The translations under genes and the position numbers were made by a program. 32,000 nucleotides of DNA from Candidatus Saccharimonadota bacterium. Lineage in GTDB: Bacteria > Patescibacteriota > Saccharimonadia > Saccharimonadales > UBA4665. The DNA is taken from positions 1 to 32,000 of the forward strand of contig CP023991.1 of NCBI GenBank assembly GCA_003516025.1, given 5' to 3'. Of the stretch, positions 8,215 through 32,000 are shown piece after piece (the first letter of the stretch is position 1; each line of letters begins with the position of its first letter). Under the pieces are notes generated by a model. That model made no database searches, had not been told where the DNA came from, and was given only the letters and a program-made list of their open reading frames with translations.

Positions 8215-8229
8215 AATAACCTCAGTGTA

Positions 8230-8622: not shown

Positions 8623-8628
8623 ACCTAT

Positions 8629-8638: not shown

Positions 8639-9688
8639 ATGAGTATGTTGAAACGACTTGGCGTAGGGCTGGTGAGCTCACTATTGATAACTATGGCGAC
8701 GTGCTGGATTGTACTGGCCGCGCTGCAAAGTACTATTGGTACGGCCGACAAGACTAAAACGCTACTCAATAACAGTGGCGCTTATCAGGCCGTGATACCC
8801 GATAAGCTCGTGGAAGCCGGCCAGAACAACTCTGAACTATCGGAATTATTATCCAACAGCCAGATACAAAAGTTATTCGCCGGCAGCTTGAGCGGCCAGA
8901 AGGTGGCCGAACAGGGAGACAGGGCGGTTGATGGCGTTTATGATTGGCTGGAAGGCAACACTGAGTCGCCTCAGGTGAAAATCAGCGTCACGCCTGACGA
9001 ATCGACTATTGGTGAAAGTGTTAATACATATGTAAACGATTTGCCGGTGTGCGCGGCAGGCGAAAATCCCGGAGCCAACATAACTACTGATCCGCTTTCG
9101 ATCCGCTGCATTCCAAATGGCATATCACCGAGTGTCATAACCAATTACCTTAAGGCGGCAGTCGCCAGTAACCCGGCGCTGGCTAACGGCGTACAAGTAG
9201 ACGAGAACGACTTACTGACCAACGGAAACCAGACTATCGACGACGCCTACAATTGGGCGCCAGCCGCCTACCAGGGCGCGCAAGCACTCCCGGTTATCAC
9301 CGCCGTAATTGGACTGGTGTGTATCGGCCTGCTGCTAGTGTTACTCAAATTACGTGCCGGCCTAAAGGCGGTTGGCGTGCAGTTAGTAACTATTGGTGCC
9401 GTCCTGGCAATTGGATCAGCCCTGATCGCCGGGGCCCTTAAAACGGTTCTGAATAATGTAATACCGGGATCTGAGACCGTAAATATCGCTAACGCCTTGA
9501 CTAAGCTGACGACCGAATTCAGCGACGCCTATAGAGGCAATATTATAAAGTTTGGGCTGTACGTGGCACTTCTCGGCGCCATTCTGTGGATTATAAGTTT
9601 TATCTTAGGACGCAGGGCACGTGGCGCTGTTACGAAACCACCGCAAGCTCAAGATACCAATGCGTTTAACAGACAAATAAACAGTTAG
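8639..9688 (+). CDS. hypothetical membrane protein (N-terminal TM, ~230-aa exposed domain, C-terminal multi-TM block)
   Basis: Hydrophobic LGVGLVSSLLITMATCWIVLAAL near the N-terminus and several TM segments from about residue 250 onward. Start is ambiguous: ATG 8639 or ATG 8645. The track start 8570 overlaps the HIT gene. Confidence 0.65.
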   Translation: MSMLKRLGVGLVSSLLITMATCWIVLAALQSTIGTADKTKTLLNNSGAYQAVIPDKLVEAGQNNSELSELLSNSQIQKLFAGSLSGQKVAEQGDRAVDGVYDWLEGNTESPQVKISVTPDESTIGESVNTYVNDLPVCAAGENPGANITTDPLSIRCIPNGISPSVITNYLKAAVASNPALANGVQVDENDLLTNGNQTIDDAYNWAPAAYQGAQALPVITAVIGLVCIGLLLVLLKLRAGLKAVGVQLVTIGAVLAIGSALIAGALKTVLNNVIPGSETVNIANALTKLTTEFSDAYRGNIIKFGLYVALLGAILWIISFILGRRARGAVTKPPQAQDTNAFNRQINS

Positions 9689-9726: not shown

Positions 9727-9816
9727 TGGCGGAGAGGGAGGGATTCGAACCCTCGGAACCGTTGCCGGCTCACTTGTTTTCGAGACAAGCCAATTCAACC
9801 ACTCTTGCACCTCTCC
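9727..9816 (-). tRNA. tRNA-Ser (anticodon CGA)
   Basis: Reverse complement is GGAGAGGTGCAAGAGTGG...CTCGAAA...GGTTCGAATCCCTCCCTCTCCGCCA. It has a 7-bp acceptor stem, anticodon loop CU-CGA-AA, long variable arm, T-loop and encoded CCA. Confidence 0.9.
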
Positions 9817-9953: not shown

Positions 9954-10030
9954 GTACCCGTAGCTCAGCTGGATAGAGCGTTGGCTTGCGGAGCCAAAGG
10001 CCGCAGGTTCGAATCCTGCCGGGTACACCA
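9954..10030 (+). tRNA. tRNA-Arg (anticodon GCG)
   Basis: GTACCCG-TA-GCTC-AGCTGGATA-GAGC-G-TTGGC-TTGCGGA-GCCAA-AGGCC-GCAGG-TTCGAAT-CCTGC-CGGGTAC-A-CCA. A full cloverleaf can be drawn by hand, and positions 34-36 are GCG. Confidence 0.9.
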
Positions 10031-10044
10031 TCATGCTAATGCTT

Positions 10045-10077
10045 AAAAGGCTTCTCTGATGAGCAGCCTTTTAATTT
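10045..10077 (+). terminator. rho-independent terminator after tRNA-Arg
   Basis: AAAAGGCT (10045-10052) pairs with AGCCTTTT (10065-10072), followed by a T-rich tail. Confidence 0.6.
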
Positions 10078-10144
10078 GGTGTTATTATGTTATTTATTAG
10101 CATTGCGTTCGTATCCTAGCAATTGTGTAGTATAGTTTAATGAC

Positions 10145-10495
10145 ATGAAAATAGATGACTCCGATACAACTATCAAAGACTTAACTGATTTATACTACGC
10201 ATTTTCCAAAGAGCGCAATTGGGAAGAGGGTTACAACCCATCATTTTTGACAAAATCTATCATTATCGAAGCAGCCGAGCTTCTTGAACATTTCCAAAAA
10301 TCTGACGGTAAAGCATCTATGGATAAAATGCAGGACCCACAAGCCAAGCAAGCCGTAGCATGGGAAATGGTCGACGTACTATACTACCTATTAATGTTGT
10401 CTCGGATCCTTGAAATTGACGTAGTGCAATCCTCAAAAGAAAAACTTGAGAATTTGGCATCAAGGTATACAGCAAAACGTATCAAGACATCATAA
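10145..10495 (+). CDS. MazG-like all-alpha nucleoside triphosphate pyrophosphohydrolase
   Basis: 116 aa. ExxE (EAAELLEH) and ExxD (EMVDVLYY) metal-binding motifs have the spacing typical of small MazG/dCTPase-like proteins. TATAGT lies 8 nt upstream of the ATG. Confidence 0.7.
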   Translation: MKIDDSDTTIKDLTDLYYAFSKERNWEEGYNPSFLTKSIIIEAAELLEHFQKSDGKASMDKMQDPQAKQAVAWEMVDVLYYLLMLSRILEIDVVQSSKEKLENLASRYTAKRIKTS

Positions 10496-10511
10496 TATAT
10501 TAAGCCGAGTG

Positions 10512-11450
10512 ATGAATGTAAAATTATCCGCCAACGATTTTGAAACCGTTATAAGCCAAAGAGTGGGTGATAGCAGGTTGGCGGAGTTAAAATCTATCAC
10601 TGCTCACGACCTGCCACCCGTTGCATATACCTCTTTTGACGGAGACATGTGGTCGCACAGTGAGTTAATGAAACAATATGTATTACGTAATGGTGCAGTA
10701 CCCCTGCATCCCGAAGCCGCTCTCGGCACGTACTTAGTGACTAATCATTACAAAGGCGATAAAGGCCCTATCATCGACGACTGTTTAAGTTTGATCAATG
10801 CGGTTGATGAGTTTTATGTTATGTCAACGGTCATGCCAGAAAAAGAGACAGACATTAGAGAACTGCCTGAAGGCGTGTTGGCGGAAGTCGTATACTGGAC
10901 CGCTCGTCGGAATAAGAAAATTAAATACATAGATATTTCTACGTATGCAGACAAAAAGGACTATGAGCATAGTCCTAAAATAATCGACAATTTGGCTACT
11001 GCCCAACAGGACGGAATCCGAGCAGCAACAAGCAAGAATAGGAAGCTAAGGAAGATAGCTTACTTATTATCTGGAGAATCTCATGCTAAACATACCGACT
11101 GGATGCGTCAGGATGCTTACGATAACGAATTGGTTCCTTTGTCTCCTTATACACTTCTAAACTACGGTACGCTTCAAATTGCATATCCAAATGATTATTT
11201 TATGCAAATTAAATGTCGAATGGCACTCGCCATAAGAGCAGACGTCGTTAACGTCTACGGTATACAACCGGAGCAGGACTTTGAGTTAATTAAACTGCCG
11301 GACGATACACTCTGTGAATTATACGTAATTATGCGTCTTAAACCCGAGACACATGTGAATTATAAATATTTCGGAGACGTAGGAGTGCCCAAATATACAG
11401 ATAGGAAAAAGTGGGTCATCACTGAGTACGAGCAAGGACTAACGGAATGA
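10512..11450 (+). CDS. hypothetical protein with an internal tandem duplication; each half resembles a nucleoside 2-deoxyribosyltransferase-like / DUF4406-like domain
   Basis: The two halves align by eye:
- half 1: VAYTSFDGD..MKQYVLRNGAVPLHPEAAL..IDDCLSLINAVDEFYV..LPEGVLAEVVYW
- half 2: IAYLLSGES..MRQDAYDNELVPLSPYTLL..KCRMALAIRADVVNVY..LPDDTLCELYVI
Start taken at ATG 10512 (MNVKL), 17 nt after the MazG stop. Confidence 0.55.
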   Translation: MNVKLSANDFETVISQRVGDSRLAELKSITAHDLPPVAYTSFDGDMWSHSELMKQYVLRNGAVPLHPEAALGTYLVTNHYKGDKGPIIDDCLSLINAVDEFYVMSTVMPEKETDIRELPEGVLAEVVYWTARRNKKIKYIDISTYADKKDYEHSPKIIDNLATAQQDGIRAATSKNRKLRKIAYLLSGESHAKHTDWMRQDAYDNELVPLSPYTLLNYGTLQIAYPNDYFMQIKCRMALAIRADVVNVYGIQPEQDFELIKLPDDTLCELYVIMRLKPETHVNYKYFGDVGVPKYTDRKKWVITEYEQGLTE

Positions 11451-11980
11451 TAAGCCGCCCATTTACGGAAATTCCGAGAATCGTAGTAGTGAACGGCGAT
11501 GTGTGTTCGGGCAGCTCAACGATCGCCCGTGAGATATCTACCAGTTTAAGCTACGATTATGTCGACGTAGGACAGCTGTTTCGATTAGAACTCAAGCGAG
11601 ATCCATCCCTTAATTTGGGCAGACTATCACTGCAGCTAAACGAAAAAGTGCGAGATAGGATAGCGACTGGCAGCAAATGCGTTATAGAAGGAAGGTTAGT
11701 TGGGCAGCAGGCACAGGGTTTCGAAGATATAGGTAAGGTACTGTGCACGGCGCAAGAATCTGTAATTCTTAGACGATACATGGAGAGGGAAGGCATACCT
11801 TATGCAGAATTAGCGATGCAATCCTTGACCGCGCGTTACACTCACGACGATGAAATACTTTCAAAGACATGGGGGATTACACGAGCCGACGCGTTAAACC
11901 CTGGCTTGTACGATGTAGCTATAGACACCTCGCATTCAAGTCCAGCAGAAATCGTTCGTGATCTCGGGTTCTCGACTTAG
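11447..11980 (+). CDS. cytidylate-kinase-like P-loop protein lacking the Walker A lysine
   Basis: RIVVVNGDVCSGSSTIAREIS resembles the (d)CMP kinase N-terminus, but GSST replaces GKST. The ATGA start/stop overlap with the upstream gene indicates translational coupling. Confidence 0.6.
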   Translation: MISRPFTEIPRIVVVNGDVCSGSSTIAREISTSLSYDYVDVGQLFRLELKRDPSLNLGRLSLQLNEKVRDRIATGSKCVIEGRLVGQQAQGFEDIGKVLCTAQESVILRRYMEREGIPYAELAMQSLTARYTHDDEILSKTWGITRADALNPGLYDVAIDTSHSSPAEIVRDLGFST

Positions 11981-12074
11981 CATATTCAAAACCATTTTCA
12001 GGTTACTCTGATGCTTAAACCTCGAATACGGGTTACCACTTCGTTGACTACGCTACACCATTTTCGTTATACAT

Positions 12075-12113
12075 ATAAAGTGCTTTTCAGATGAAAAGTA
12101 CTTTATATTTTTT
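12075..12113. terminator. bidirectional rho-independent terminator between convergent genes
   Basis: ATAAAGTGCTTTTC (12075-12088) pairs with GAAAAGTACTTTAT (12093-12106), 14 bp with one G-U. The loop is AGAT. An A-rich run precedes it and a T-run follows. Confidence 0.75.
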
Positions 12114-12123
12114 GAATTCTAGT

Positions 12124-13026
12124 CTACCAAATCTCGACATCAAGCTTTTTGAGTATCGTATCAATATTATTATCCGACACAATGTCTTTCCAGCCCCTAT
12201 GTCCAATTACCTGATAGCTATACGCATATAAATTTTTTGTATTGAAATACGGAATAGGGTCAGCAGCATGCTCTGTAAGGTAATTCTTTAGTCTGCGGCT
12301 AAACTCAGAGGTAAGTATGACCTCCCTGAAGCCAGCTTCAATACTCCGCAGTTCATCGATGGAATACATATCTTTTTTAAGCATCCTAAACTTGTGTGAG
12401 TAACCGACAAGATCCTGATATTCAGCCCATTCATCGCCGCTGTCGTAACAATTCCTAATCCGCTGGACCATTACATTTATCTCTGAAAGCGCAAGCGCTT
12501 GAAGAAGATAGACGGCAAGCGGTTTTAGGTCGAAGGGACATTCTTTGACGCGGTATGTTACGGAAAACTCTGCAAAACTGTGCGGAGATGTATTACTAAA
12601 CTGTATTAATTTCGAGTTTAATTCTCGCGCATCATCATTAATAGGATTTGATCTTAAGAAATCCTCGCGCATCGTCCAAGGCAAAGTATGTAATTCATGG
12701 ACCTCATCTAATAACTCTGGTACATCATACTGAACAAGTCGCTCATATTCACTGCTGATTTGATTAACTGCAGCTGTAATGTCATCCGAGTCTATACGTA
12801 CACTTTCCAGTATCGATAATAATCCTGTAATCATCGTCTCATGAGCAGCTTCAACGGATATAACAATAATGCCGTCATATGTATTCGCATTTAATTCATA
12901 GTCAAGAAGCGGTGCGTAGCGTTGTACCATGAAAAAATCATTGATTTTGTCAGCAATTATATGTTCATAAATATGTCCGACGGAATGGAAGGCAGATTGC
13001 TTTATTAGTGTAATCTCGGGTCTCAT
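12124..13026 (-). CDS. hypothetical protein, 300 aa, with an N-terminal HxxEH motif
   Basis: AT-rich long ORF. Residues 18-22 read H-I-Y-E-H, the inverted zinc motif of M16/pitrilysin-type proteins. The rest was not recognisable by eye. TAATAT lies 6 nt upstream of the ATG. Confidence 0.6.
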   Translation of the reverse strand: MRPEITLIKQSAFHSVGHIYEHIIADKINDFFMVQRYAPLLDYELNANTYDGIIVISVEAAHETMITGLLSILESVRIDSDDITAAVNQISSEYERLVQYDVPELLDEVHELHTLPWTMREDFLRSNPINDDARELNSKLIQFSNTSPHSFAEFSVTYRVKECPFDLKPLAVYLLQALALSEINVMVQRIRNCYDSGDEWAEYQDLVGYSHKFRMLKKDMYSIDELRSIEAGFREVILTSEFSRRLKNYLTEHAADPIPYFNTKNLYAYSYQVIGHRGWKDIVSDNNIDTILKKLDVEIW

Positions 13027-15143: not shown

Positions 15144-15233
15144 AGCTAGTCGGGAAACTTTTTACTCACTTTGGCGGTAATAGTGTTTTTACCACTACGA
15201 CGCAGCCACTTCAGTGAAACCTCAACTTTCATT

Positions 15234-15242
15234 TGGTATAAT
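15234..15242 (+). promoter_or_regulatory. extended -10 promoter TGgTATAAT inside the annotated 5' end of the VKOR ORF
   Basis: TGGTATAAT at 15234-15242. An in-frame GTG at 15250 follows 7 nt later. Confidence 0.55.
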
Positions 15243-15249
15243 GTTGGCA

Positions 15250-15837
15250 GTGAAACGGCTTGCCAAACTCCCGAAAATTTTGCCGTACATCCTGATTATC
15301 TGCGGTACTATCGGCCTCATCTGCGCGTTTGTGATTATGTACGAAAAGCTGCAGCTGCTGGCAGACCCGTCATACAAGCCGGCCTGTAGTATAAATCCGG
15401 TGATCAGCTGCGGTAGTATTATGAAATCCGATCAAAGCCACCTGTTTGGCTTTCCGAACCCGATAATTGGCCTGGCGGCATTTCCCGTACTGATTACTAC
15501 CGGTGTCGCCATGCTGGCCGGCGCACAGTTTAAGCGCTGGTACTGGCGTGGCTTACAAATTGGATCGCTGCTTGGCGTAGCATTTGTAACCTGGTTATTC
15601 TTTGAGAGCGTTTACCGCATTGGCGCGCTCTGCCCATACTGCATGGTCGTGTGGACAATTACTATCATGACATTTTGGTATGTCACCCTGTATAACTTGC
15701 AGCAGGAACATATAAGACTGAACCCACGTGTTGCCAACTTCTTACAGCAACATCACTTTGATATTTTGCTAATGTGGTACCTGGTTATTGCCGGACTGAT
15801 ATTGCAACACTTCTGGTACTTTTTTGGTCCTAGCTAA
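15250..15837 (+). CDS. vitamin K epoxide reductase (VKOR) family protein
   Basis: Loop cysteine pair CSINPVISC, active-site CPYC and a 4-5 TM pattern. Start proposed at GTG 15250 (MKRLAKLPKIL...). The track ORF starts at 15214, upstream of the promoter. Confidence 0.8.
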   Translation: MKRLAKLPKILPYILIICGTIGLICAFVIMYEKLQLLADPSYKPACSINPVISCGSIMKSDQSHLFGFPNPIIGLAAFPVLITTGVAMLAGAQFKRWYWRGLQIGSLLGVAFVTWLFFESVYRIGALCPYCMVVWTITIMTFWYVTLYNLQQEHIRLNPRVANFLQQHHFDILLMWYLVIAGLILQHFWYFFGPS

Positions 15838-23172: not shown

Positions 23173-23922
23173 CTAGAACCGGATCCGGCGCATCAAGCGG
23201 TCGATAGCATCGTGTGAGCGGGCCTCAATAGGCAGGTAAGCAGCCAGTACATCAAGAATGCGTTCTTCGTCAGCGGGATCAAAATAAATGCTCATAGTAG
23301 GCATGAAGCGCTTGAGGGGCATGAGAGCAATGCTTTGAAAAGGGCCTTCCTGCATAACGGAAAAACCACGAAAGTTGCTGTAGGCATAGAAGCGGCGGCC
23401 AATAGTAATACCGTGGTCATCAACGCTATACTGCATCTCACGGGGTTTACGGCTGGCCGCGTAGCCAAAGATAATACTAACGATAACAGCCGTGCCGACT
23501 GACAAGGCGTCACGCGTAATCAACCAGACCAGCGCGGTTATGAGGATGGCTACCCCGACGAGGGCCAAATACCAGTTGGCTGATTTTTCATGAGCTATAA
23601 ATTCAGACGCCGTCCAGCTAACAGAATCGCCCACATGCTGCATACGCAGATCGGCAGGCTGCGGTTCGTCCTGATAACCGGGCTGATACTGAGGAACGTA
23701 TGATTGCTGATCCGGTGCCGGCGACTCGGTGGAACGGAAAAAATGCTGCTCCTCGGGAGCGCCCGGCGGGGCAGGCGATTGTGCCGATGGGCTGCCCGGC
23801 GTTACAACCTGTGATGGTTGCGGCGCGCCGTCATTTTGACGCATCGAAACAGTGTCTCCGGGCTTGAACTCCTCGCTACCTCCAGAATTGCCGGTACCGT
23901 CCGGCTGGGAATCACGATCCAT
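23173..23922 (-). CDS. membrane protein: Pro/Gln-rich N-terminus, two TM segments, PH-like (YdbS/YdbT-type) C-terminal domain
   Basis: TM hairpin WYLALVGVAILITALVWLI / VGTAVIVSIIFGYAA, followed by YSVDDHGITIGRRFYAYSNFRGF. Start set at ATG 23922 (MDRDSQ). The track extension to 23994 would cover a promoter and a terminator. Confidence 0.65.
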   Translation of the reverse strand: MDRDSQPDGTGNSGGSEEFKPGDTVSMRQNDGAPQPSQVVTPGSPSAQSPAPPGAPEEQHFFRSTESPAPDQQSYVPQYQPGYQDEPQPADLRMQHVGDSVSWTASEFIAHEKSANWYLALVGVAILITALVWLITRDALSVGTAVIVSIIFGYAASRKPREMQYSVDDHGITIGRRFYAYSNFRGFSVMQEGPFQSIALMPLKRFMPTMSIYFDPADEERILDVLAAYLPIEARSHDAIDRLMRRIRF

Positions 23923-23929
23923 AAGCGCT

Positions 23930-23958
23930 ATTGTACCTGATTGCTGTCTAAGATACAA
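23930..23958 (-). promoter_or_regulatory. promoter TTGTAT-17-TACAAT, 7 nt upstream of the ATG
   Basis: The -35 is 23953-23958 and the -10 is 23930-23935 (minus strand), followed by AGCGCTT and ATG 23922. No SD. Confidence 0.5.
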
Positions 23959-23992
23959 AAGCTCGATGCTCCGGGACCGGTACGCTTGGGGC

Positions 23993-24019
23993 AATAAAAA
24001 AGCCCGACGGCGTCGGACT
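23993..24019 (-). terminator. rho-independent terminator after tRNA-Ser(GCU)
   Basis: Minus strand reads AGTCCGAC-GCC-GTCGGGCT followed by TTTTTTATT. Confidence 0.6.
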
Positions 24020-24027: not shown

Positions 24028-24120
24028 TGGCGGAGAGAGAGGGATTCGAACCCTCGCTGGGACTCGCGCCCCACTAACGATTTAGCAAACCGTCCCCTTC
24101 AGCCACTTGGGTACCTCTCC
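24028..24120 (-). tRNA. tRNA-Ser (anticodon GCU)
   Basis: Reverse complement is GGAGAGGTACCCAAGTGG...ACGGT-TTGCTAA-ATCGT...long variable arm...GGTTCGAATCCCTCTCTCTCCGCCA. Confidence 0.9.
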
Positions 24121-24233
24121 GTGGCAATTGCATTATTGTAACAGCTATAAATACGTGGTGGAAGGCGAAAAGTGCCGGCGGCGCTTTTTGTAGACGCCAG
24201 CGACGCGTCGTTACCATGACTACTGATATTACC

Positions 24234-24323
24234 TGGCGGAAGGGGTGGGATTCGAACCCACGGTACCGTTGCCGGCACGACGGTTTTCAAGACCGTTTCC
24301 TTAAACCGCTCGGACACCCTTCC
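24234..24323 (-). tRNA. tRNA-Ser (anticodon UGA)
   Basis: Reverse complement is GGAAGGGTGTCCGAGCGG...ACGGT-CTTGAAA-ACCGT...long variable arm...GGTTCGAATCCCACCCCTTCCGCCA. Confidence 0.9.
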
Positions 24324-24394: not shown

Positions 24395-25063
24395 TTATGC
24401 CTGGGCAAACACCATGGCATGAATACGGCGGGCACCCGCCGCGCGCAGGACGCTGGCGCAGGCATCTATGGTAGCGCCGGTGGTAACCACATCGTCAATT
24501 AACAAGATTGACGCTCCATGAATATCTGAGCCATGAACCGCTCGGAAGTCACTGCCTAGTTGACTGGTACGCTGCGCACGATTGGCGCCAATCTGTTGAT
24601 GACGACCAGCCCGGGCCAGCAGAGGAATACAGGGGAGGCCATAGGCAGCTGCGAATGCCCGGGCAATCAATCGAGCCTGGTCGTACCCGCGTTGGCGCAC
24701 ATGCGTGGTAGCCGTAGGCACGTAGGTGACGACAGTATTATCAGCGACAGGAAGGAGCCGCTGTTTTGCCATAAGGGTTCCGATTTCCGCTGCGGCTGCC
24801 CGGGCCCGGCCAAATTTCAGCCTCCATATCAGCTCTTTGGCGATGCCCTGGTAGCAGGCGACCGGAAAGACGGCCGCCACGCTGGTTTCCTCGAAACACA
24901 GCTGGCAGGTAGCGAAGTCCCGATTGCCGGCCATACAGCGGTAGCAGCGCGGTGTCGCAGGAGGTAAGGATCGTGCGCACTGGCGGCATATCAGGCTGCC
25001 CTCGGAGCCACAACCCAGACAGTCATGGGGAGCCAACAGGGAGAGGAGGGGTGTAAGAAGCAT
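24395..25063 (-). CDS. comF: ComF-family phosphoribosyltransferase-like competence protein
   Basis: N-terminal zinc-finger-like CLGCGSEGSLICRQC..CYRC..C and a C-terminal PRTase loop ILLIDDVVTTGATI. This architecture is typical of ComFC. Confidence 0.8.
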   Translation of the reverse strand: MLLTPLLSLLAPHDCLGCGSEGSLICRQCARSLPPATPRCYRCMAGNRDFATCQLCFEETSVAAVFPVACYQGIAKELIWRLKFGRARAAAAEIGTLMAKQRLLPVADNTVVTYVPTATTHVRQRGYDQARLIARAFAAAYGLPCIPLLARAGRHQQIGANRAQRTSQLGSDFRAVHGSDIHGASILLIDDVVTTGATIDACASVLRAAGARRIHAMVFAQA

Positions 25064-25222: not shown

Positions 25223-25711
25223 ATGGCGCGACGCTCTCGCGACGATGACGACCTTTTGATGGAAGAGGATGAACTGACTGCAGCTTTCCTGGGCGACGAC
25301 GACCTTGGCGGTCCGATCGAACGAAGTAACCCAGGCTCTGCTCAGGCACCCGCTCCGGCAGAAGAATGGGACGAAGAAGACAGCGTTCCTGGCCAGTTGG
25401 CAGTTGATGTATACGAAACGAAGGAAAAGCTTGTCGTTAAAGCCCGCACCGCTGGCGTAAACAAGCACGATCTTGATGTCAGTATCTCTGATAATACGCT
25501 TACTATCCGCGGTACGCTTAGCGCCGGTAACGAAGACGACGTCGAAAACTACTTCCTGCAGGAGTGTTACTGGGGTGAATTCTCACGCAGCATCGCGCTG
25601 CCGGTTCCAGTCAAGGAAGAGGAGATCGAAGCCGTTCTCAAAGATGGCGTCCTGACCATCAGCTTCGGCAAGGTCAAGCAGGATACCGTAAAGAAAATTC
25701 AGATTCTCTAG
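25223..25711 (+). CDS. Hsp20/alpha-crystallin family small heat-shock protein
   Basis: Alpha-crystallin domain: LAVDVYETKEKLVVKARTAGVNKHDLDVSISDNTLTIRG ... GEFSRSIALPVPVKEEEIEAVLKDGVLTISF. The N-terminus is acidic. Confidence 0.88.
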   Translation: MARRSRDDDDLLMEEDELTAAFLGDDDLGGPIERSNPGSAQAPAPAEEWDEEDSVPGQLAVDVYETKEKLVVKARTAGVNKHDLDVSISDNTLTIRGTLSAGNEDDVENYFLQECYWGEFSRSIALPVPVKEEEIEAVLKDGVLTISFGKVKQDTVKKIQIL

Positions 25712-25790: not shown

Positions 25791-25821
25791 GCAAACGAAA
25801 ACCCCGCTCTTACGAGCGGGG
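25791..25821 (-). terminator. rho-independent terminator closing the pilin-like gene array
   Basis: Minus strand reads CCCCGCTC-GTAA-GAGCGGGG followed by TTTTCGTTT, about 30 nt after the stop of the last array gene. Confidence 0.75.
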
Positions 25822-25853
25822 CAGTGTAGGCGAAAGGTTCGCGGGTCCGGTTA

Positions 25854-26276
25854 TTAGCCGTCGAGGCCGGAAGCCTGGCCAAGTACGAAACGGACGATGA
25901 ACTGTGCCAAGGCAACGATCACCAAACCAACGAGGGCGTAGATGATAGTGTTCTTAGCACCAGATACGTTGCCAGAGTCGCCACCAGAGGTGATGTATTT
26001 TAGACCACCGATGATGATCATGATGACAGCAATAACACCAACGATGATTGAGAAGATGTTAATAACACGCTTCAGCAGGGTGCTAACGTTGTTAGCGGCG
26101 GTTTGACCTTCGGCTTCGGCATCACAAGTACCGGTAGCGTTCAGGTTGACGCCCTGACACAGGCTACCCTGAATATCAGTATCCTGAGCATAGACAGCGA
26201 CTGGTACCAAAGCTGGGGCAGCGAAGGTGAACAGCGCGGCAACTGCGATAAGCATATTACGTACTTTTGAGATCAT
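25854..26276 (-). CDS. VirB2/TrbC-like T4SS pilin-family protein, paralog 6 of 6 (140 aa)
   Basis: Signal peptide ending VAVYA-QD, a two-Cys loop (CQGVNLNATGTC), then a two-TM hairpin with GGLKYITSGGDSGNVSGAKNTIIYALVGLV. Own promoter at 26311-26340 and an AAAGG SD. Confidence 0.75.
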   Translation of the reverse strand: MISKVRNMLIAVAALFTFAAPALVPVAVYAQDTDIQGSLCQGVNLNATGTCDAEAEGQTAANNVSTLLKRVINIFSIIVGVIAVIMIIIGGLKYITSGGDSGNVSGAKNTIIYALVGLVIVALAQFIVRFVLGQASGLDG

Positions 26277-26310
26277 ATAGAACCTTTCATTACTTTCTTA
26301 TTTTAATCAA

Positions 26311-26340
26311 TTTATACCACAATACCTACCTGCTTTGCAA
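26311..26340 (-). promoter_or_regulatory. internal promoter TTGCAA-18-TGgTATAAA ahead of the last pilin-like gene
   Basis: The only sizeable gap in the array is 84 nt (26277-26360). The -35 is 26335-26340. The extended -10 runs 26311-26319, with the hexamer at 26311-26316. Confidence 0.5.
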
Positions 26341-26360
26341 GCATAAGTATTATCTAGGAA

Positions 26361-26744
26361 TTATACTGAACCGAGGGCGAATTTAACAATTACTTGGGCC
26401 AGGGCCGCTACGACAATGCCGACCAGAGCATAAGTAAGAGCACTCTTGGCACCCGAAACTTTACTGCTGTCACCGCCAGAGGTTATATAGCGTAATCCAG
26501 ATATCACGATCATAATCACAGCCGCGATACCAATGATATAGCTTAGGATATTGATGATAGCCTTTACCACACTGGCGATATCGACGCCCGTGCCGCCGTT
26601 ACAGTCGTTGCCGGCATTAATGGATTGGCAAACCTCGGTTTTTGGGTCAGCCGCAAAGACAGGTGCGGTTACCAATGGCGCCACGCCGAACCCGATCGTC
26701 AGGGCCATTACTCCAGTCATTATCAATTGTTTGATTCGTTGCAT
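26361..26744 (-). CDS. VirB2/TrbC-like pilin-family protein, paralog 5 of 6 (127 aa)
   Basis: Signal peptide ending APVFA-AD, two-Cys loop CQSINAGNDC and hairpin motif SGLRYITSGGDSSKVSGAKSALTYALVGIV. It starts 3 nt after the upstream stop. Confidence 0.75.
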   Translation of the reverse strand: MQRIKQLIMTGVMALTIGFGVAPLVTAPVFAADPKTEVCQSINAGNDCNGGTGVDIASVVKAIINILSYIIGIAAVIMIVISGLRYITSGGDSSKVSGAKSALTYALVGIVVAALAQVIVKFALGSV

Positions 26745-26747
26745 ACG

Positions 26748-27137
26748 TTATACCTTGCTTAATACAAATTTTAATATTGCTTGCGCCGTCAGGACGATCA
26801 CTACGCCAACCACCGCGCCGATTAATGCCGACTTGGCACTGGCTACCTTACTGGCTTCACCGTTGGCGGTAATAAAGTAAAAGCCGCTGAGCAGCACCAT
26901 GATAACGGCGGCGATACCGGCTACGTTAGCCACGATACGGGTAACCTTATACAGGATACCATTGGGGCCACTGACTGGATCAGCGGTCTTATTCTTGTCG
27001 GTACATACAGCCGATGAGCCCGAGTTGTTGCCGCCAACCTGACAGGCTTCATTAAGCGGATCATAGGCGACTGCCGAAGCAGCAGGTAAGGCGACGCAAC
27101 TGAATATAAGCGCCAGGGCAATGATAAAACGTTTCAT
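26748..27137 (-). CDS. VirB2/TrbC-like pilin-family protein, paralog 4 of 6 (129 aa)
   Basis: Signal peptide ending ASAVA-YD, two-Cys loop CQVGGNNSGSSAVC and hairpin motif SGFYFITANGEASKVASAKSALIGAVVGVV. TAATG stop/start overlap with the upstream gene. SD is AAGGGGGTG. Confidence 0.75.
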   Translation of the reverse strand: MKRFIIALALIFSCVALPAASAVAYDPLNEACQVGGNNSGSSAVCTDKNKTADPVSGPNGILYKVTRIVANVAGIAAVIMVLLSGFYFITANGEASKVASAKSALIGAVVGVVIVLTAQAILKFVLSKV

Positions 27138-27421
27138 TACGACACCCCCTTTACGACAAACGTTACGATCGAGAAAGCCATCAGCGAGACGACAAGCCCG
27201 ACCAGAGCATAAATGATAGTGTTCTTAGCTTGCGAGACAGCGCTTGGATCTCCGTGCGCTAAAACATAACGCAGGCCGCCAATAACGATCATCAACAGAG
27301 CGATAGAGCCGGTTATCGAGAACACAATGCTCAAAATATTATCAATAGAGGCCTGGTTGGCCTGAGCTTTCGGCAACCCTTCAGTGGTTATAACTTGTGC
27401 GAAATGATACAGACTATTCAT
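27137..27421 (-). CDS. VirB2/TrbC-like pilin-family protein, paralog 3 of 6 (94 aa), with no signal peptide and no Cys
   Basis: Starts with polar MNSLYHFAQVITTEGLPKAQ, then goes directly into the hairpin GGLRYVLAHGDPSAVSQAKNTIIYALVGLV. SD is GGGTGGA. Confidence 0.7.
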   Translation of the reverse strand: MNSLYHFAQVITTEGLPKAQANQASIDNILSIVFSITGSIALLMIVIGGLRYVLAHGDPSAVSQAKNTIIYALVGLVVSLMAFSIVTFVVKGVS

Positions 27422-27426
27422 ATATA

Positions 27427-27822
27427 TTATCCACCCAACCGGTTGCCCAGGAACGCTACCAGGCTAACAGCTATTAATGATACGACCAAGCCAATCAGGG
27501 CATTGATGATGGTCTGCTGCGCCTTGCTGGTCTGGTCGGGCGCGCCCTGACTGGTAACATAGGTAATACCGCCGTAAATAATAAATCCTACGGCAACCAA
27601 GGCGGCGACACGAAGCAGGTCGTCAACGATAACCAGCCCGATGAGCAGAAAATCGCTGCGGTTACCGAGAACCTGAAAATTTGTGACTTCGCAAGCGCCA
27701 GTCTGCGGGTTAGCCTGTAGATTAAGGTACTGGTACCACGGCTTAAGGCCGAAGAAGGTCGGCCGGTCCGTACAAGCCGCGGCGAAGTTCTGCACGAGCG
27801 GACTGATAAGCGAAGCGAACAT
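27427..27822 (-). CDS. VirB2/TrbC-like pilin-family protein, paralog 2 of 6 (131 aa)
   Basis: Atypical N-terminus MFASLISPLVQNFAAAC and two Cys (ACTDRP...GACEV). Hairpin motif is YGGITYVTSQGAPDQTSKAQQTIINALIGLV. SD is AGGAGGA. It starts 1 nt after the upstream stop. Confidence 0.7.
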   Translation of the reverse strand: MFASLISPLVQNFAAACTDRPTFFGLKPWYQYLNLQANPQTGACEVTNFQVLGNRSDFLLIGLVIVDDLLRVAALVAVGFIIYGGITYVTSQGAPDQTSKAQQTIINALIGLVVSLIAVSLVAFLGNRLGG

Positions 27823-27823
27823 A

Positions 27824-28264
27824 CTAAATGATTCCTCCTGGGATTAAGAAGTTGAGTAGCGCGTACAGGAAAAAGAAAGCAACCAGTGCCACGATGGCGT
27901 TGATGATCCATTTCTTACCGGAGGCGACTTTTTGCGGATCGCCACCTGAACTACCATACTGAATACCACCGTAAATAATCGCGATTACTACCGCGACACC
28001 AAAAAAGGCCGCTATAAAGCGGATCGCCGGATTGAGGTACGTCTTAATAAGACCGCAATCGCTCACATTGGCGCAGTCACCACCGCCAAGAGCAGGGTCG
28101 CAGGAATCGCGCTGTACCCGCTCAACCCCATCATCACTGGCTTCAGTAGAGGATGGGTCAGCGCATGTCGCGGCATATGCTTGGCTGGGAGTAGATACCA
28201 GGCCAATGCATGCCGAAGCGACAATGGCGAGTATGAGGAGTCGGAGCATTTTCATTTTTTGCAT
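27824..28264 (-). CDS. VirB2/TrbC-like pilin-family protein, paralog 1 of 6 (146 aa from MQKMKM)
   Basis: Signal peptide MQKMKMLRLLILAIVASACIGLVSTPSQAYA-AT and a four-Cys ectodomain. Hairpin motif is YGGIQYGSSGGDPQKVASGKKWIINAIVALV. The track start 28366 would run through the promoter region. Confidence 0.7.
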   Translation of the reverse strand: MQKMKMLRLLILAIVASACIGLVSTPSQAYAATCADPSSTEASDDGVERVQRDSCDPALGGGDCANVSDCGLIKTYLNPAIRFIAAFFGVAVVIAIIYGGIQYGSSGGDPQKVASGKKWIINAIVALVAFFFLYALLNFLIPGGII

Positions 28265-28282
28265 TTTATGAACCTGTAAGTA

Positions 28283-28311
28283 ATTATTAGCTTTTTTGGA
28301 CCGGTTTGCAA
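28283..28311 (-). promoter_or_regulatory. promoter TTGCAA-17-AATAAT for the pilin-like array
   Basis: The -35 is 28306-28311 and the -10 is 28283-28288 (minus strand), about 19 nt upstream of ATG 28264. Confidence 0.4.
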
Positions 28312-28359
28312 GTCTTAACCTTGATACATATATATAAGCATAGACTATGTATAAATTTT

Positions 28360-28388
28360 TACACACACTTGCGCCATTATGGTATAGT
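28360..28388 (+). promoter_or_regulatory. extended -10 promoter TACACA-17-TGgTATAGT for the VirB6-like operon
   Basis: TGGTATAGT at 28380-28388 with a weak -35 TACACA at 28360-65. It diverges from the array promoter. Confidence 0.45.
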
Positions 28389-28436
28389 TACTTAGTAATG
28401 AGTAGCTTTGGTGTGGGCCAGCAATACTGACATAAT

Positions 28437-31070
28437 ATGAAAAACTTTTTCAAACGGCGAAAATATCAGATTGCCATGTTTTTAGTGGCGACGTTTGCCC
28501 TAGGCGGACTATTCGCATTAGTTCCTACCTCTCAGGCTGAAGCAGCCGATGGCTGGGTAGTGGTCGAGAATGGCAACCGCACGGCTCAATGGGTCGCCCC
28601 GGACAAGATAGTATACGGCGGCCAGACATTCGTTGACAGCAATACCGGGGACAATAACTGGAATTTCGAATACAAATACGTACGGGACGGTGGGGTCGTA
28701 GGGCTTGACGACTGTGAGAGCAAAATTTGGTTCAACGTAAACCCGTACGGCGTTAACGGCGGCCAGAACGCGCGTGCCACCGTTGAAACAACCAACGGTG
28801 GCGGGGCTATTGCATGTAGCGCGACATTCACCGACGAGGCACTGCAGTTAACGAACCGGGTTACCCGCTGTAACGGCGACGCGGCCTGTGTACAGCAGGC
28901 TGCTCAGGAACAGTGTGGCACGACCGGAAGCGCGGATAGTATTAGTACCTGTATGGCCAATGTCACGCAGCAGGGTAATACCGCTCCGACGACTGGTGGC
29001 GCCGGCTCTACGGGAGGACAGTCGGCCGAAGACTCCAGCACTGGCTGTGATTTTGGTGGCAATCCCTTAACCTGGATCATTTGTCCGACAATTGGGATTT
29101 TAGAAGTCATGATCCAGAAAGTGGATGACTTTATTATGTCTTCACTGACTTTCGACACCGAGAATGTCTTTAAGACAGACGGTGGTTATTATGCCGCCTG
29201 GAACTCATTCAGAGTTATCGCTACCAGCTTGCTGGTTATCGTAGGTATCGTTATGGTGACCTCGCAGGCTCTGGGATTCGAGTTCCTCGATGCCTACACT
29301 ATTAAAAAAGTACTGCCGAGATTACTGATTGCGATTATTGGCATGACCCTGTCGTGGCCGCTCATGAAATTCGCGATTGAATTCTTTAACACGTTAGGGA
29401 CCGACGTTCGTAGCCTGATATATAGTCCGTTCGGAGCGGAGATACAAGGCACCCTAGGGGGAAGCACGCTATTCGTATTTAACGCCGCGACCATCGCCGC
29501 GTTAGTCGCATTAGGGCCGGGAGGAATACTGTCATTCCTCGTTACCGCCGCGCTAGCCGTACTGGTTGGTTTTGTTATTATCCTTGTCCGTTACCTGGCA
29601 ATCATTGTGCTGGTAGTGTTCGCGCCAATTGCCATAGCCGCTTTCATATTGCCAAATACCAACAAGATTTGGGACTTGTGGAGAACCAACTTTATCGGCT
29701 TATTACTGGTGTTCCCAATTATTTCAGCCTTCATCGCGATCGGTAGAGTATTTTCGGCGGTTTCGCTTGGTGGCGGCGGACCTGATTCATTCGCGGCCGG
29801 TAGTATTGCCCAGATCGTTGGTTTTGTGGCTTATTTCTTACCATACTTCTTACTTCCTATCGCCTTCAGGCTTGCCACGGGAGTAATCGGTTCCATAGCC
29901 GGCTTCGTGAACGACAAAAACCGCGGTGCCTTCGACCGGCTCAAAAAGTATCGCCAGAACGCTTACGCCACTCATGGTGGCGTTCGCATGGAGCGTGGCA
30001 AAGAACGTGCTCTGCAACAAAAATACCGGGCATATAACAACCTCCAGAATGCCAGTGGTGGACGCGTCAAACGGTTTGCTGCCCGCAGGGCAGCGGGGGC
30101 GATAGGCGGGTTCAACATTGAATCACAGGTATCTGCCAACAATGCTAAAAACGCCAAGATGATTGACGATCAGACAGCCAACGGGCCCGATAACTTAGTC
30201 CGTGCCTACACGGTCAATAAAAGCTACGCTGATAAATTATTGGCTAGTGGCGACTCACGCGCCTCTGACTTCGTCCGTGTCAATAAAGACGCTGCCGGCA
30301 ATGAGATTGGTCGTGAATACCGTTCAGTCGGTGGCTCATGGCAAAGCGAAGCCGACGTATTAGCTTCTAACCGCGCCTTTGGCAACAACAACCATGCTGC
30401 TTTCCAAAAAGCACTTACCTACGAAATGGGTAAGGCCAACACGCAGGAGGAGCAGGATCACGTTGTCAGTTCTTACGGAGCAGCTGCTGCCCGCTTTGGC
30501 ATGACACAGCGCGAAGCAGGAGAGGTCTGGATAGGCTCAGCGTACGCTCAGCAGAACAGCAACCGCCAGTGGAAGCATCACAAGTGGTCAACCGGTTCAG
30601 ACGGCATGCTGCACAGTTCTGTTAACGGCCTCGGTATGATGCGCGAAATTGACGAGAAGCAGGGCAACTACCAGATGATGCAGCAGAGTGCCGATACCTG
30701 GACTACCATGGGTCAGGAAGTCGTTACCGCCCGGCAGGTTATGGACGGCTCGGTTACTGGTGACCGCGTCAAGGCCGAAGAGACCTTGCAGCGGGCCGCC
30801 CGCATCGCGCACGCGACACGTTCCGGCGGTATGTCCCGTTCACCTGTTACCGGCCAGGAAGGTGACGTTACCGGAGCAACGACCGGCGGTGGTGGAGAAG
30901 TTGGATCTGGTGCTCCTGGCCGTGTCATGGAAGAGATGAACCGCTTCGTTCAACTTACCGATATGCATGCAGGTAAGTACACTCCGCCGAAAGGCAGCTC
31001 AGCTCCGCCGACAGTTATTCCTGGCGACGTAAGCGAAGGGACTATAAACCGGCGTTCTCCAGATCGGTAA
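28437..31070 (+). CDS. VirB6/TrbL-like polytopic T4SS membrane protein with a Cys-rich ectodomain and a long hydrophilic C-terminal extension (877 aa)
   Basis: Signal peptide ending SQAEA-AD. A ~170-aa ectodomain carries 8 Cys. About 7-8 TM segments span residues ~210-490, with Gly/Ile/Phe-rich helices like TrbL/VirB6. A ~390-aa polar tail ends in Gly-rich TGATTGGGGEVGSGAPG. Confidence 0.65.
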   Translation: MKNFFKRRKYQIAMFLVATFALGGLFALVPTSQAEAADGWVVVENGNRTAQWVAPDKIVYGGQTFVDSNTGDNNWNFEYKYVRDGGVVGLDDCESKIWFNVNPYGVNGGQNARATVETTNGGGAIACSATFTDEALQLTNRVTRCNGDAACVQQAAQEQCGTTGSADSISTCMANVTQQGNTAPTTGGAGSTGGQSAEDSSTGCDFGGNPLTWIICPTIGILEVMIQKVDDFIMSSLTFDTENVFKTDGGYYAAWNSFRVIATSLLVIVGIVMVTSQALGFEFLDAYTIKKVLPRLLIAIIGMTLSWPLMKFAIEFFNTLGTDVRSLIYSPFGAEIQGTLGGSTLFVFNAATIAALVALGPGGILSFLVTAALAVLVGFVIILVRYLAIIVLVVFAPIAIAAFILPNTNKIWDLWRTNFIGLLLVFPIISAFIAIGRVFSAVSLGGGGPDSFAAGSIAQIVGFVAYFLPYFLLPIAFRLATGVIGSIAGFVNDKNRGAFDRLKKYRQNAYATHGGVRMERGKERALQQKYRAYNNLQNASGGRVKRFAARRAAGAIGGFNIESQVSANNAKNAKMIDDQTANGPDNLVRAYTVNKSYADKLLASGDSRASDFVRVNKDAAGNEIGREYRSVGGSWQSEADVLASNRAFGNNNHAAFQKALTYEMGKANTQEEQDHVVSSYGAAAARFGMTQREAGEVWIGSAYAQQNSNRQWKHHKWSTGSDGMLHSSVNGLGMMREIDEKQGNYQMMQQSADTWTTMGQEVVTARQVMDGSVTGDRVKAEETLQRAARIAHATRSGGMSRSPVTGQEGDVTGATTGGGGEVGSGAPGRVMEEMNRFVQLTDMHAGKYTPPKGSSAPPTVIPGDVSEGTINRRSPDR

Positions 31071-31131
31071 AAATTCTCACTTACTATTTCTTGATAACAT
31101 GGTCTAATAGTTTAGTAATTTAAGGACTTCT

Positions 31132-31551
31132 ATGGCCTCAGAACGATTTGACACTCCGGTCTACAATGTAATACCCGTGCAACATGAAGATGCCGAAGAT
31201 GGAAAATTCTTTCCATTCCATAACCCTGTTACGGATGCCGAGGGCATTTCCATGATAGTAGGGCTGGTTCCGGCTGCCGATTTGAGCGGTGGTGATCACT
31301 TTAAATATTTGGGCCAGAAAGTTGATCCACCAGTAGAAGTAATGCCTTTACATGGCGTCCGAGGCGATAAAGCGCTCTGGTTTGACTTAAGCACGGTCAA
31401 TGACTCCGCCGCAGCACAGCAGCGCCTTGAAACGGTCCGGCAACTCATGGAAAAGGTGATTAACGTAGGTACGGATCCTCTCGGCTATTTCGAGGCTCGA
31501 TATGAGACAACGAGCGTAACTGAAACACTAGATATCCGCCCGCTGACGTAG
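31132..31551 (+). CDS. hypothetical small acidic cytoplasmic protein, 139 aa
   Basis: ORF with an AAGGA SD 8 nt upstream and no TM segment. Its position between the VirB6-like and PrgI-like genes suggests a locus-specific accessory protein. Confidence 0.6.
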   Translation: MASERFDTPVYNVIPVQHEDAEDGKFFPFHNPVTDAEGISMIVGLVPAADLSGGDHFKYLGQKVDPPVEVMPLHGVRGDKALWFDLSTVNDSAAAQQRLETVRQLMEKVINVGTDPLGYFEARYETTSVTETLDIRPLT

Positions 31552-31568
31552 TCCGTAACGAAATATTT

Positions 31569-31577
31569 TGCTATACT
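31569..31577 (+). promoter_or_regulatory. extended -10 TGcTATACT, 8 nt upstream of the PrgI-like ATG
   Basis: TGCTATACT at 31569-31577, then AAGCATAA, then ATG 31586. No SD. Confidence 0.4.
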
Positions 31578-31585
31578 AAGCATAA

Positions 31586-32000
31586 ATGGCGACGTACAAA
31601 GTTCTCCAGGATATTGAGGCAGAAGACAAGCTGGTGGGCCCGCTGACGCTCCGGCAGTGTATTTATGCTGCCATTGCTATCGTATCCATCTATTTTTCAT
31701 ACTTGGTTATATCCAAAGGCGCAGCCTTTTTGGCAGTCGTATTTCTACCGTTTATTGGTTTTGGCATTTTCTTTGCTTTCCCATGGAACAAGCAGCAGTC
31801 GACCGAAGTTTGGGCACTGGCAAAAGTCCGGTTCGCCCTTAAGCCGCGTAAGCGTATTTGGGATCAGAGCGGTATTAAACAGCTGGTTGCGATTACGGCT
31901 CCGAAGCAGGTTGAGGACCCACGCAAGAATAGCCACATGTCCGAAGTGGAAGTCCGCAACCGCCTGGCGGCCCTGGCGGCTACCGTTGACAGCCGTGGTT
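31586..32000 (+). CDS. PrgI/VirB3-like T4SS membrane protein, 5' part (runs off the window; may continue into a VirB4-like ATPase)
   Basis: Hand translation gives MATYKVLQDIEAEDKLVGPLTLRQCIYAAIAIVSIYFSYLVISKGAAFLAVVFLPFIGFGIFFAFPWNK.... The EDK-x-GPLTLRQ start plus two TM segments is the PrgI-family signature. There is no stop before 32000, so it is absent from the ORF track. Confidence 0.65.
   Translation, partial: MATYKVLQDIEAEDKLVGPLTLRQCIYAAIAIVSIYFSYLVISKGAAFLAVVFLPFIGFGIFFAFPWNKQQSTEVWALAKVRFALKPRKRIWDQSGIKQLVAITAPKQVEDPRKNSHMSEVEVRNRLAALAATVDSRG

Follow-up and report, generated by a model that had tools for sequence, protein, structure and literature searches.

A six-pilin array and its divergent VirB6-like operon in a Candidatus Saccharimonadota genome: probable left half of the conserved type IV secretion locus of Saccharimonadia

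The region described here occupies positions 25854-32000 of a stretch of 32,000 nucleotides (nt), referred to as the window, from contig CP023991.1 of a Candidatus Saccharimonadota bacterium; all coordinates refer to this window, whose right edge cuts the last gene of the region. Two groups of genes diverge there, namely an array of six small genes for pilin-like proteins on the minus strand and, on the plus strand, an operon that starts with the gene of a long polytopic membrane protein. A sequence-only reading, made by a model without database searches, had described these genes as a type IV secretion system (T4SS)-like locus from the CPR (candidate phyla radiation) and had put it forward as an undescribed apparatus. 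With a probability of about 0.85, these genes make up the left half of a T4SS that is conserved on the chromosomes of Saccharimonadia (Saccharibacteria, CPR/Patescibacteria). They are orthologous to the genes SEML1_0006-0019 of Ca. Southlakia epibionticum ML1, and the apparatus has its relatives among Gram-positive conjugation systems (MPF-FATA class). The CPR origin was right and the locus was read correctly, but it is already described and not new.

An open reading frame (ORF) map places six minus-strand pilin genes and three plus-strand ORFs exactly where the sequence-only reading had located them, every element of the array and of the operon that it faces being present. Counted from the distal end of the array, pilin 1 (25854-26276; 140 amino acids, aa) carries a putative signal peptide, the cysteines Cys40 and Cys51 and a C-terminal helical hairpin, and the same elements recur in pilin 2 (26361-26744; 127 aa; Cys39/Cys48) and pilin 3 (26748-27137; 129 aa; Cys32/Cys45). 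Pilin 4 (27137-27421; 94 aa) is a short member with neither signal peptide nor cysteine, pilin 5 (27427-27822; 131 aa) is devoid of a canonical signal peptide and displays the N-terminal motif FFGLxPWYxYL, and the proximal pilin 6 (27824-28264; 146 aa) combines a putative signal peptide with a Cys-rich N-terminal part and the hairpin. The start of pilin 6 is the ATG at 28264, the longest ORF reaching 28366. Junctions between the pilin genes range from -1 to +5 nt, with the exception of an 84-nt spacer (26277-26360) ahead of the distal gene. The pilin transcription units are closed by a terminator-like stem-loop on the minus strand (25801-25822), 32 nt past the stop of the distal pilin, which features a stem of 9 bp with 7 G-C pairs, a loop of 4 nt and a T-rich tail (GCCCCGCTCGTAAGAGCGGGGT TTTCGTTT). 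The AT-rich divergent promoter region, estimated beforehand at about 170 bp, measures 172 bp (28265-28436) and contains two promoter-like sites that are pattern matches only: TTGCAA-17-AATAAT on the minus strand (28311-28283) and TACACA-17-TATAGT on the plus strand (28360-28388), the latter with TG ahead of the -10 element.

By sequence, the six small proteins are of the VirB2/T4SS_pilin type. In profile hidden Markov model (HMM) searches all six surpass the curated threshold of the T4SS_pilin family (PF18895, 26.6 bits), pilins 1 to 6 scoring 53.3, 43.6, 36.4, 47.8, 27.1 and 33.1 bits, respectively, and pilin 5 thus passing barely. The TrbC/VirB2 family (PF04956) is matched above threshold by pilin 1 alone (32.8 versus 27.9 bits), pilins 2 and 3 being sub-threshold, and NF045849, the Mbov_0395 family of pilin-like proteins from Mycoplasma integrative and conjugative elements (ICEs), gives 20-35 bits, below its cutoff of 40. 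The TrbC/VirB2-like character that had been assumed from a common hairpin of two transmembrane helices is thereby borne out. Hydropathy and alignment show in each of the six a C-terminal pair of hydrophobic helices with the short loop GG-x-x-Y-[IV]-x-S-x-G-D...AK, and inspection by eye finds a possible leader in pilins 1, 2, 3 and 6, whose basic N-termini run into a hydrophobic stretch and then an AxA-type site, and none in pilins 4 and 5. The AlphaFold2 (AF2) model of pilin 1, with a predicted local distance difference test (pLDDT) score of 78.5 overall and above 90 in the hairpin, comprises a signal-peptide helix, a poorly ordered stretch containing the cysteines and then a long helical hairpin formed by helices 53-96 and 101-135. 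Pilin 1 has 4984 homologs at E<=1e-3, and the paralogs within the window share 19-46% identity.

No significant match was obtained when the pilin profile was compared with TrwL of R388 by hhalign, and a search of PDB sequences returned only a weak match to cytochrome bd subunit II (6rko_B, E 0.022). The same profile aligns with the CydB helices of the Pfam family Cyt_bd_oxida_II (E 0.003), and many homologs of pilin 1 are named 'cytochrome bd-type quinol oxidase subunit 2' by the Joint Genome Institute (JGI), probably because of this weak match, so that the CydB-like similarity is the likely source of pilin misannotation in metagenomes.

The first gene on the plus strand (28437-31070) encodes an extended VirB6/TrbL-like polytopic protein of 877 aa; public gene calls adopt a start 13 codons further on, which gives 864 aa. 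An N-terminal anchor is followed by a Cys-rich and poorly predicted region (residues ~30-200), a membrane core (~205-540) and a C-terminal region (~540-800), the last two helical; a hydrophilic C-terminal domain takes up about 340 aa. The hydrophobic segments lie within residues 254-491 and amount to the five helices or more that define a polytopic protein here, and the AF2 model (pLDDT 71 overall, 70-92 in the membrane core) exhibits long helices at 211-537. More than 300 homologs were found, nearly all in Saccharimonadales, and TrbL_3 (PF19590) is the precomputed Pfam annotation of the identical protein and of homologs (P0001, P0022, P0091). A direct Pfam scan of the 877-aa protein never returned PF19590, the model being either absent from that copy or changed. 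Of 37 aligned homologs, 19 match the related profile TrbL (PF04610) at E<=1, the lowest E-value being 2.6e-5. In a Foldseek search of the PDB with the 877-aa model, seven of the best eight matches are chains of the R388 stalk complex (ranks 1-7, with further chains at ranks 11 and 41); those at ranks 1-7 have E-values from 5.9e-3 to 0.26, probabilities of 0.87-1.00, about 190-280 aligned columns and 18-21% identity, and the sole chain checked by sequence, 7o3v_F, is TrwI/VirB6. The next matches (MurJ, a vinculin homolog and G-protein-coupled receptors) have probabilities of 0.15 or less, and a tblastn search for VirB6-like relatives in 72,556 plasmids gave no match. These similarities are weak, and the protein is identified as VirB6-like with moderate confidence, an 'extended VirB6' in the terms of a 2025 T4SS review (PMC12857230). 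Its gene is placed in a T4SS operon alongside VirB3- and VirB4-type genes.

Conserved extracytoplasmic cysteines are present in all but one of the pilins and in the VirB6-like protein's N-terminal domain. A VKOR-family protein, a disulfide-forming enzyme, is encoded on the plus strand at 15214-15837 (151.6 bits), 10 kb from the pilin array.

The gene that runs off the window (31586-32000, plus strand) encodes, as far as the edge, the first 138 aa of an extended membrane protein of the PrgI/VirB3-like type. These residues cover the whole PrgI profile (PF12666, residues 5-92, 47.7 bits versus a threshold of 27) and include a hydrophobic segment at 24-68, which upholds the PrgI/VirB3-like identity proposed for the truncated gene; no BLASTP similarity was detected between the window protein and PrgI of pCF10. 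The downstream genes were read on a JGI metagenome contig (L001) that is identical to window positions 26262-32000 over 5739 nt without a mismatch. On this contig, the full PrgI-like gene (5325-6482) encodes 385 aa and is followed by genes for a TrsD-like protein of 290 aa (6572-7444), a VirB4 ATPase of the CD1110 family of 640 aa (7444-9366), a 1057-aa protein of no family and, after the latter, a 429-aa hydrolase with Phage_lysozyme2 and Peptidase_M23 domains. The VirB4 protein reaches 362.6 bits with NF045971 (cutoff 325), matches the VirB4 structure 4ag5 of the PDB with E=5e-47, shares 26% identity with PrgJ of pCF10 over 581 aa (E=1e-45) and visibly contains GAGKS and VDEAW; with NF045975 (Mbov_0397) it scores 265 bits, below the cutoff of 590. 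The TrsD-like protein aligns with positions 2-101 and the ATPase with positions 182-733 of NF045971. Since both thus cover separate parts of the VirB4 model, VirB4 is split into two genes here.

The sequence beyond position 32000 was to be inspected for VirB4- and VirD4-like ATPases and a cell-wall hydrolase; contig L001 supplies VirB4, after one TrsD-like gene, and the hydrolase, while no VirD4-like ATPase was found on it. Among the Pfam and NCBIfam matches of the window ORFs of at least 100 aa and of L001 there is no relaxase, coupling protein, integrase or VirB7/9/10-like gene, and no repeat boundary was found, in agreement with the earlier remark that neither a relaxase nor an outer-membrane core gene is visible. 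In ML1, a distant coupling-protein homolog is present and not essential (PMC12102498). Pilin similarity of the small proteins, VirB6 similarity of the 877-aa protein and a T4SS ATPase downstream, the three features on which the sequence-only reading was made to depend, were all encountered.

Between the VirB6-like and PrgI-like genes, where a 139-aa acidic protein had been noted, lies an ORF (31132-31551, plus strand) for a soluble protein of this length with an isoelectric point of 4.57 and no hydrophobic segment. Neither Pfam nor NCBIfam provided a match; a search of 5.8 billion proteins recovered only the protein itself, and one of 1.84 billion representatives two remote relatives. The closer of these (35% identity; locus L084) resides in the equivalent slot, between a VirB6-like C-terminus with 56% and a PrgI with 64% identity, so the 139-aa protein evolves faster than its neighbours. 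In about 20 other loci (L002-L080) the slot is empty, and otherwise it harbors a single ORF that encodes 100-630 aa. Most of these ORFs are unrelated to one another: 40 of them fall into 36 clusters. The slot is accordingly a site of hypervariable, lineage-specific genes within a very conserved operon, and its gene product might serve as cargo, as an adaptor or as a host-specific factor.

Conservation and copy number of the array were followed in a comparison set of 80 loci from species-representative Saccharimonadales genomes, analysed with an in-house ORF and HMM pipeline, and counts of orthology and promoters refer to the 52 loci among them with a contiguous array of exactly six pilin genes. 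The best match in the GTDB representative set has 60% identity. About 70 of the 80 loci show the order ComF, Hsp20, pilins, VirB6-like, PrgI, TrsD-like and VirB4; in the window, the flank consists of Hsp20 (25223-25711), a ComF-like gene (24395-25063) and tRNA-Ser (24028-24323). The array thus recurs in some 70 related genomes, and its members form six fixed ortholog groups. For 309 of 312 pilins the best cross-genome match occupies the same array position, the agreement being 49/52 at position 2 and 52/52 at each of positions 3, 4, 5 and 6. The median score is 142 bits between genomes, that is among orthologs, versus 69.5 bits among the paralogs of one genome. Moreover, every position has a length and a conserved motif of its own, such as FFGLxPWYxYL at position 5, and position 4 is always short and leaderless, with a median ORF length of 99 aa across loci. 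Position 1 is the most conserved, with a mean ortholog identity of 48% for pilin 1; the higher values computed for VirB4 (84%) and Hsp20 (80%) are provisional and carry no weight as evidence here. Copy number ranges from 6 to 9 among the sampled loci. In the nine-gene arrays (L028, L048, L050) and the seven-gene arrays (L061, L064) all extra genes are of the position-1 type, with the caveat that one or two of them in the larger arrays score nearly equally well as position 2, and positions 2-6 remain single copy.

The distal gene is further distinguished by the only real spacer of the array, whose median length across loci is 71.5 nt; the gene table of ML1 likewise has a spacer, of 83 nt, ahead of the distal pilin only (PMC10633639). 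In the window, this spacer holds a predicted internal promoter on the minus strand (26311-26340), composed of the -35 hexamer TTGCAA (26340-26335), an extended -10 element TGg (26319-26317) and the -10 hexamer TATAAA (26316-26311), as well as a GAAAGG ribosome-binding site upstream of pilin 1 (26288-26283, minus strand). The pattern TTGNNN-N16-19-TATAA is present in the spacer of 43 of the 52 loci, versus 0.013 occurrences expected per spacer from the locus-wide density, and TGNTATAA in that of 32; an extended -10 (TGN) is frequent, and a Shine-Dalgarno-like motif accompanies 46 of the spacers. Another promoter-like site at 26389-26360 was set aside; the conserved site is that at 26340-26311, with a -10 hexamer ending in A. 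The distal pilin is therefore predicted to possess its own conserved promoter of the sigma-70-type motif.

An orthologous locus has been published. Wang et al. 2023 (PMC10633639) reported from Ca. Southlakia epibionticum ML1 an apparent T4SS, SEML1_0006-0019, which they likened to the conjugative systems of Gram-positive bacteria; it has several pilin subunits that are essential, and neither a coupling protein nor a relaxase could be recognised in it. Its genes encode, in this order, a lysozyme, a 1113-aa protein, VirB4, a 293-aa protein, PrgI, a 998-aa T4SS protein, an NTF2-like protein, a TrbL/VirB6-like protein, six divergent PF18895 pilins, Hsp20, ComF and tRNA-Ser (PMC10633639). According to transposon sequencing (Tn-seq) at later time points, the six pilins, the distal VirB6-like SEML1_0013, PrgI and VirB4 are essential (PMC10633639). 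More broadly, Quiñonero-Coronel et al. 2025 (PMC12102498) found homologs of TrsD, PrgI and VirB6 in Patescibacteria and a VirB4 clade adjoining MPF-FATA, and catalogued 441 VirB2 arrays of 2-11 genes in 383 Patescibacteria assemblies, with an abundance of them in Saccharimonadia (PMC12102498). A six-pilin array is also highlighted in the 2025 T4SS review (PMC12857230). Six VirB2 paralogs, earlier held to be far outside the norm, are hence the norm of the class, as the ML1 locus, the catalogued arrays and the review attest, and the claim of an undescribed apparatus gives way to a published locus that is essential by Tn-seq in ML1 (PMC10633639). What goes beyond the papers examined are modest refinements: the fixed positional orthologs, the distal promoter, the duplication of a single type and the variable slot. 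The division into major and minor pilins was not found in the literature examined.

By analogy with R388 and F, the pilins would enter the membrane as helical hairpins, with the help of a signal peptide in four cases out of six. PrgI/VirB3 and the split VirB4 would pull them out of it again and build them into a polymer on the VirB6-like platform, and the cell's own wall would be opened by the hydrolase. This would yield a tube or stalk of pilins where the cell touches its host bacterium. Pilin 1 is regarded as the candidate major subunit for three reasons: a conserved putative promoter serves its gene, its sequence is conserved best, and no other type is duplicated. Fixed orthology, the distal promoter, amplification of a single type and the essentiality of each pilin in ML1 jointly argue against interchangeable variants and for an assembly of major and minor subunits. 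A single assembly in which none of the six pilins is redundant, pilin 1 being its abundant major subunit and the products of the five proximal genes its single-copy minor subunits, is nonetheless put at slightly below an even chance. More tentative still is the full proposal of a fixed heteromeric tube or stalk on an extended VirB6, built from one major and five minor pilins and serving as a conduit for uptake from the host or for protein injection, with the slot gene as a lineage-specific cargo or adaptor. Transport may consist in protein export to the host or in import of host molecules. To our knowledge, no characterised T4SS has such a heteromeric architecture, known pili consisting of one VirB2-type pilin with at most a VirB5 tip.

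Several observations weigh against this reading of the locus and of its product. The best Foldseek matches of the pilin 1 model in the PDB are generic helical hairpins, the conjugation pilin of Aeropyrum ranking 46th (E 4.2, target TM-score 0.63), and such a search is non-discriminating because the fold is too simple. For the 877-aa protein, the polytopic nature and the operon context proposed earlier hold, whereas a direct profile match is absent and the evidence from homologs and fold is weak: the protein itself has no direct Pfam or NCBIfam match, nor has its core (29037-30070) when scanned alone with Pfam, the profile of its family returns noise only against PDB sequences, Foldseek gives no match at E<=1e-3 and TM-scores of 0.29-0.42 of the target, and hhalign comparisons of the family with PrgH of pCF10 and TrwI of R388 are not significant, both aligning the helix 373-422. 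The distal promoter is a conserved sequence pattern and not a mapped transcription start, from which higher expression of pilin 1 can only be inferred. Essentiality and orthology, in turn, are not proof of co-assembly, as the six pilins could act at separate steps or places. Finally, the literature reports no experiment that reveals a filament, channel or substrate for any Saccharibacterium (PMC11665869, PMC12857230), and an extracellular filament figures in it as a possibility only (PMC12857230).

The array might alternatively provide interchangeable pilin variants for antigenic variation or for matching host strains, as proposed for the VirB2 paralogs of Bartonella and Anaplasma and suggested for Patescibacteria (PMC12102498). 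The high divergence of the paralogs, which average ~25% identity in that survey, and a copy number that differs both among the sampled loci (6-9) and in the survey (2-11; PMC12102498) would suit such a role, yet the same six positional orthologs, each with its own signature and length, are retained over 52 species-level genomes and resemble one another more closely than they do their paralogs, and all six pilins are individually essential in ML1 (PMC10633639). As copy number varies for the position-1 type only, at most that subunit could be variable; for positions 2-6, antigenic variation is rejected on the grounds of orthology, essentiality in ML1 and single copy, and for the array as a whole it is improbable. 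The small proteins could also be something other than filament subunits, for instance membrane-embedded parts of a channel or secreted effectors, given that Gram-positive T4SSs normally lack pili (PMC12102498, PMC10633639), that no filament has been observed, that two of the six have no signal peptide by eye and that papers on TM7x label such genes a 'Sec secreted array' or 'putative effector genes'. All six nevertheless match T4SS_pilin and one matches TrbC/VirB2, and each ends in two membrane-spanning helices, which is a misfit with a soluble effector; a non-filament role is considered unlikely, albeit less so than a set of interchangeable variants.

A different question is whether these genes represent an intact or decayed conjugative element that moves DNA between cells. 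VirB4, PrgI and the TrsD-like protein are closest to Gram-positive conjugation systems and Mycoplasma ICEs, and the pilins show sub-threshold matches to the Mbov_0395 family of the latter, but the mobility functions searched for in the window and on L001 (relaxase, coupling protein, integrase and repeat boundary) were not seen. The absence of a relaxase and a coupling protein at the locus by itself makes conjugation unlikely. In addition, the neighbours are housekeeping genes (ValRS, TsaD, tRNAs), the synteny with Hsp20 and ComF extends across the order, base composition equals that of the surroundings, and the survey of Patescibacteria detected relaxases in only 103 genomes (PMC12102498). On the basis of its neighbours, its conserved synteny and the lack of mobility genes in the window and on L001, the reading as a mobile element is rejected as highly improbable. 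Uptake, on the other hand, concerns the direction of transport rather than the identity of the locus and is compatible with the conserved chromosomal T4SS favored here: the machine would import DNA, nucleotides or other host molecules, as the ComB T4SS of Helicobacter does, with the pilin tube as conduit. Saccharibacteria lack de novo synthesis of nucleotides, amino acids and lipids, and their T4SS is essential while ComEC is not (PMC12857230, PMC11665869); the locus has neither coupling protein nor relaxase, and a ComF-like gene is its conserved neighbour. Conversely, ComF is non-essential in ML1 (PMC10633639), its adjacency could be merely historical, and T4SSs are far more often exporters. 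Uptake is accordingly treated as a serious possibility, though one that falls short of being probable.

The function of the T4SS of Saccharibacteria, which is essential in the only species tested and conserved class-wide, is an acknowledged open question (PMC12857230, PMC11665869), and the literature agrees with the sequence-only reading that structure, substrate and role of T4SSs in CPR bacteria are still open (PMC11665869). This system is also the only T4SS of the Gram-positive type with pilins (PMC12857230, PMC11665869). Being one more instance of an orthologous locus, the region in the window does not itself open that question, and its interest is limited to the unsettled biology of the system and to modest comparative refinements. 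The comparative results could sharpen experiments in cultivable species, in that pilin 1 is the likely filament subunit and the other five are candidate assembly or tip factors, and the variable slot points to a candidate host-specific factor.

Elsewhere in the window lie housekeeping genes, such as those for TsaD and ValRS, and tRNA genes, and the base composition of the locus is that of the surrounding sequence. A region at 10001-13000 has a G+C content of 0.39-0.44 versus 0.49-0.56 elsewhere and adjoins tRNA-Ser (9727-9816) and tRNA-Arg (9954-10030); some of its ORFs (10446-11450, 12124-13026) belong to no family and the others resemble MazG or cytidylate kinase, and it may be an acquired island beside tRNA genes. 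Further ORFs of the window without a Pfam family at E<=1e-5 are found at 13-1938 (minus strand, 641 aa), 2046-3047 (minus strand, 333 aa), 8570-9688 (plus strand, 372 aa) and 23173-23994 (minus strand, 273 aa).

Among known systems, the ML1 locus agrees with the present one in gene order and orientation, in the flank of Hsp20, ComF and tRNA-Ser, in the size pattern of the pilins and in the spacer of about 83 nt before the distal pilin only. It differs in that the genes of two large VirB6-like/T4SS membrane proteins (0013 and 0011) flank a non-essential NTF2-like gene, whereas the window has one such protein and the near-orphan of 139 aa, and in having a hydrolase with two lysozyme-like domains instead of lysozyme plus M23. 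The systems surveyed in Patescibacteria (PMC12102498) share a VirB4 of the MPF-FATA lineage, TrsD, PrgI, VirB6, tandem VirB2-like genes and the lack of a nearby relaxase; that survey, however, reads the arrays as variable and suggests roles in host range or antigenicity, while the Saccharimonadales sampled here display six fixed ortholog groups of which the distal type alone is amplified.

With the Prg/Pcf system of pCF10 the locus has in common the order PrgH (VirB6-like), PrgI (VirB3-like), PrgJ (VirB4) and PrgK (lysozyme-type hydrolase) and the absence of an outer-membrane core. On the contrary, pCF10 has no pilins but surface adhesins, a coupling protein and a relaxase, the present locus having pilins and neither of the latter two; PrgI measures 117 aa in pCF10 versus 385 aa here, PrgH 266 aa versus 877 aa, and VirB4 is split only here. 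The Gram-negative VirB/Trw system of R388, whose VirB2 pilus stands on a VirB5/VirB6 stalk, resembles it in the family of VirB2-type hairpin pilins and in VirB3 plus VirB4, and its stalk-complex chains, TrwI/VirB6 among them, are the best if weak fold matches of the core. It departs from the locus by having only one gene for a pilin, and by VirB11, a VirB5 tip protein and an outer-membrane core of VirB7/9/10, which were not found here. Mycoplasma ICEs (Mbov_0395, Mbov_0397) likewise represent a monoderm system, in this case wall-less, that pairs a pilin-like hairpin protein with VirB4, the scores being sub-cutoff; they are mobile elements with a single pilin-like gene in place of six. Bartonella and Anaplasma also have several tandem, divergent VirB2-like genes near a T4SS (PMC12102498). 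Their arrays are thought to provide surface variation, whereas five of the six pilin types described here are single-copy orthologs throughout the order and essential in a relative.

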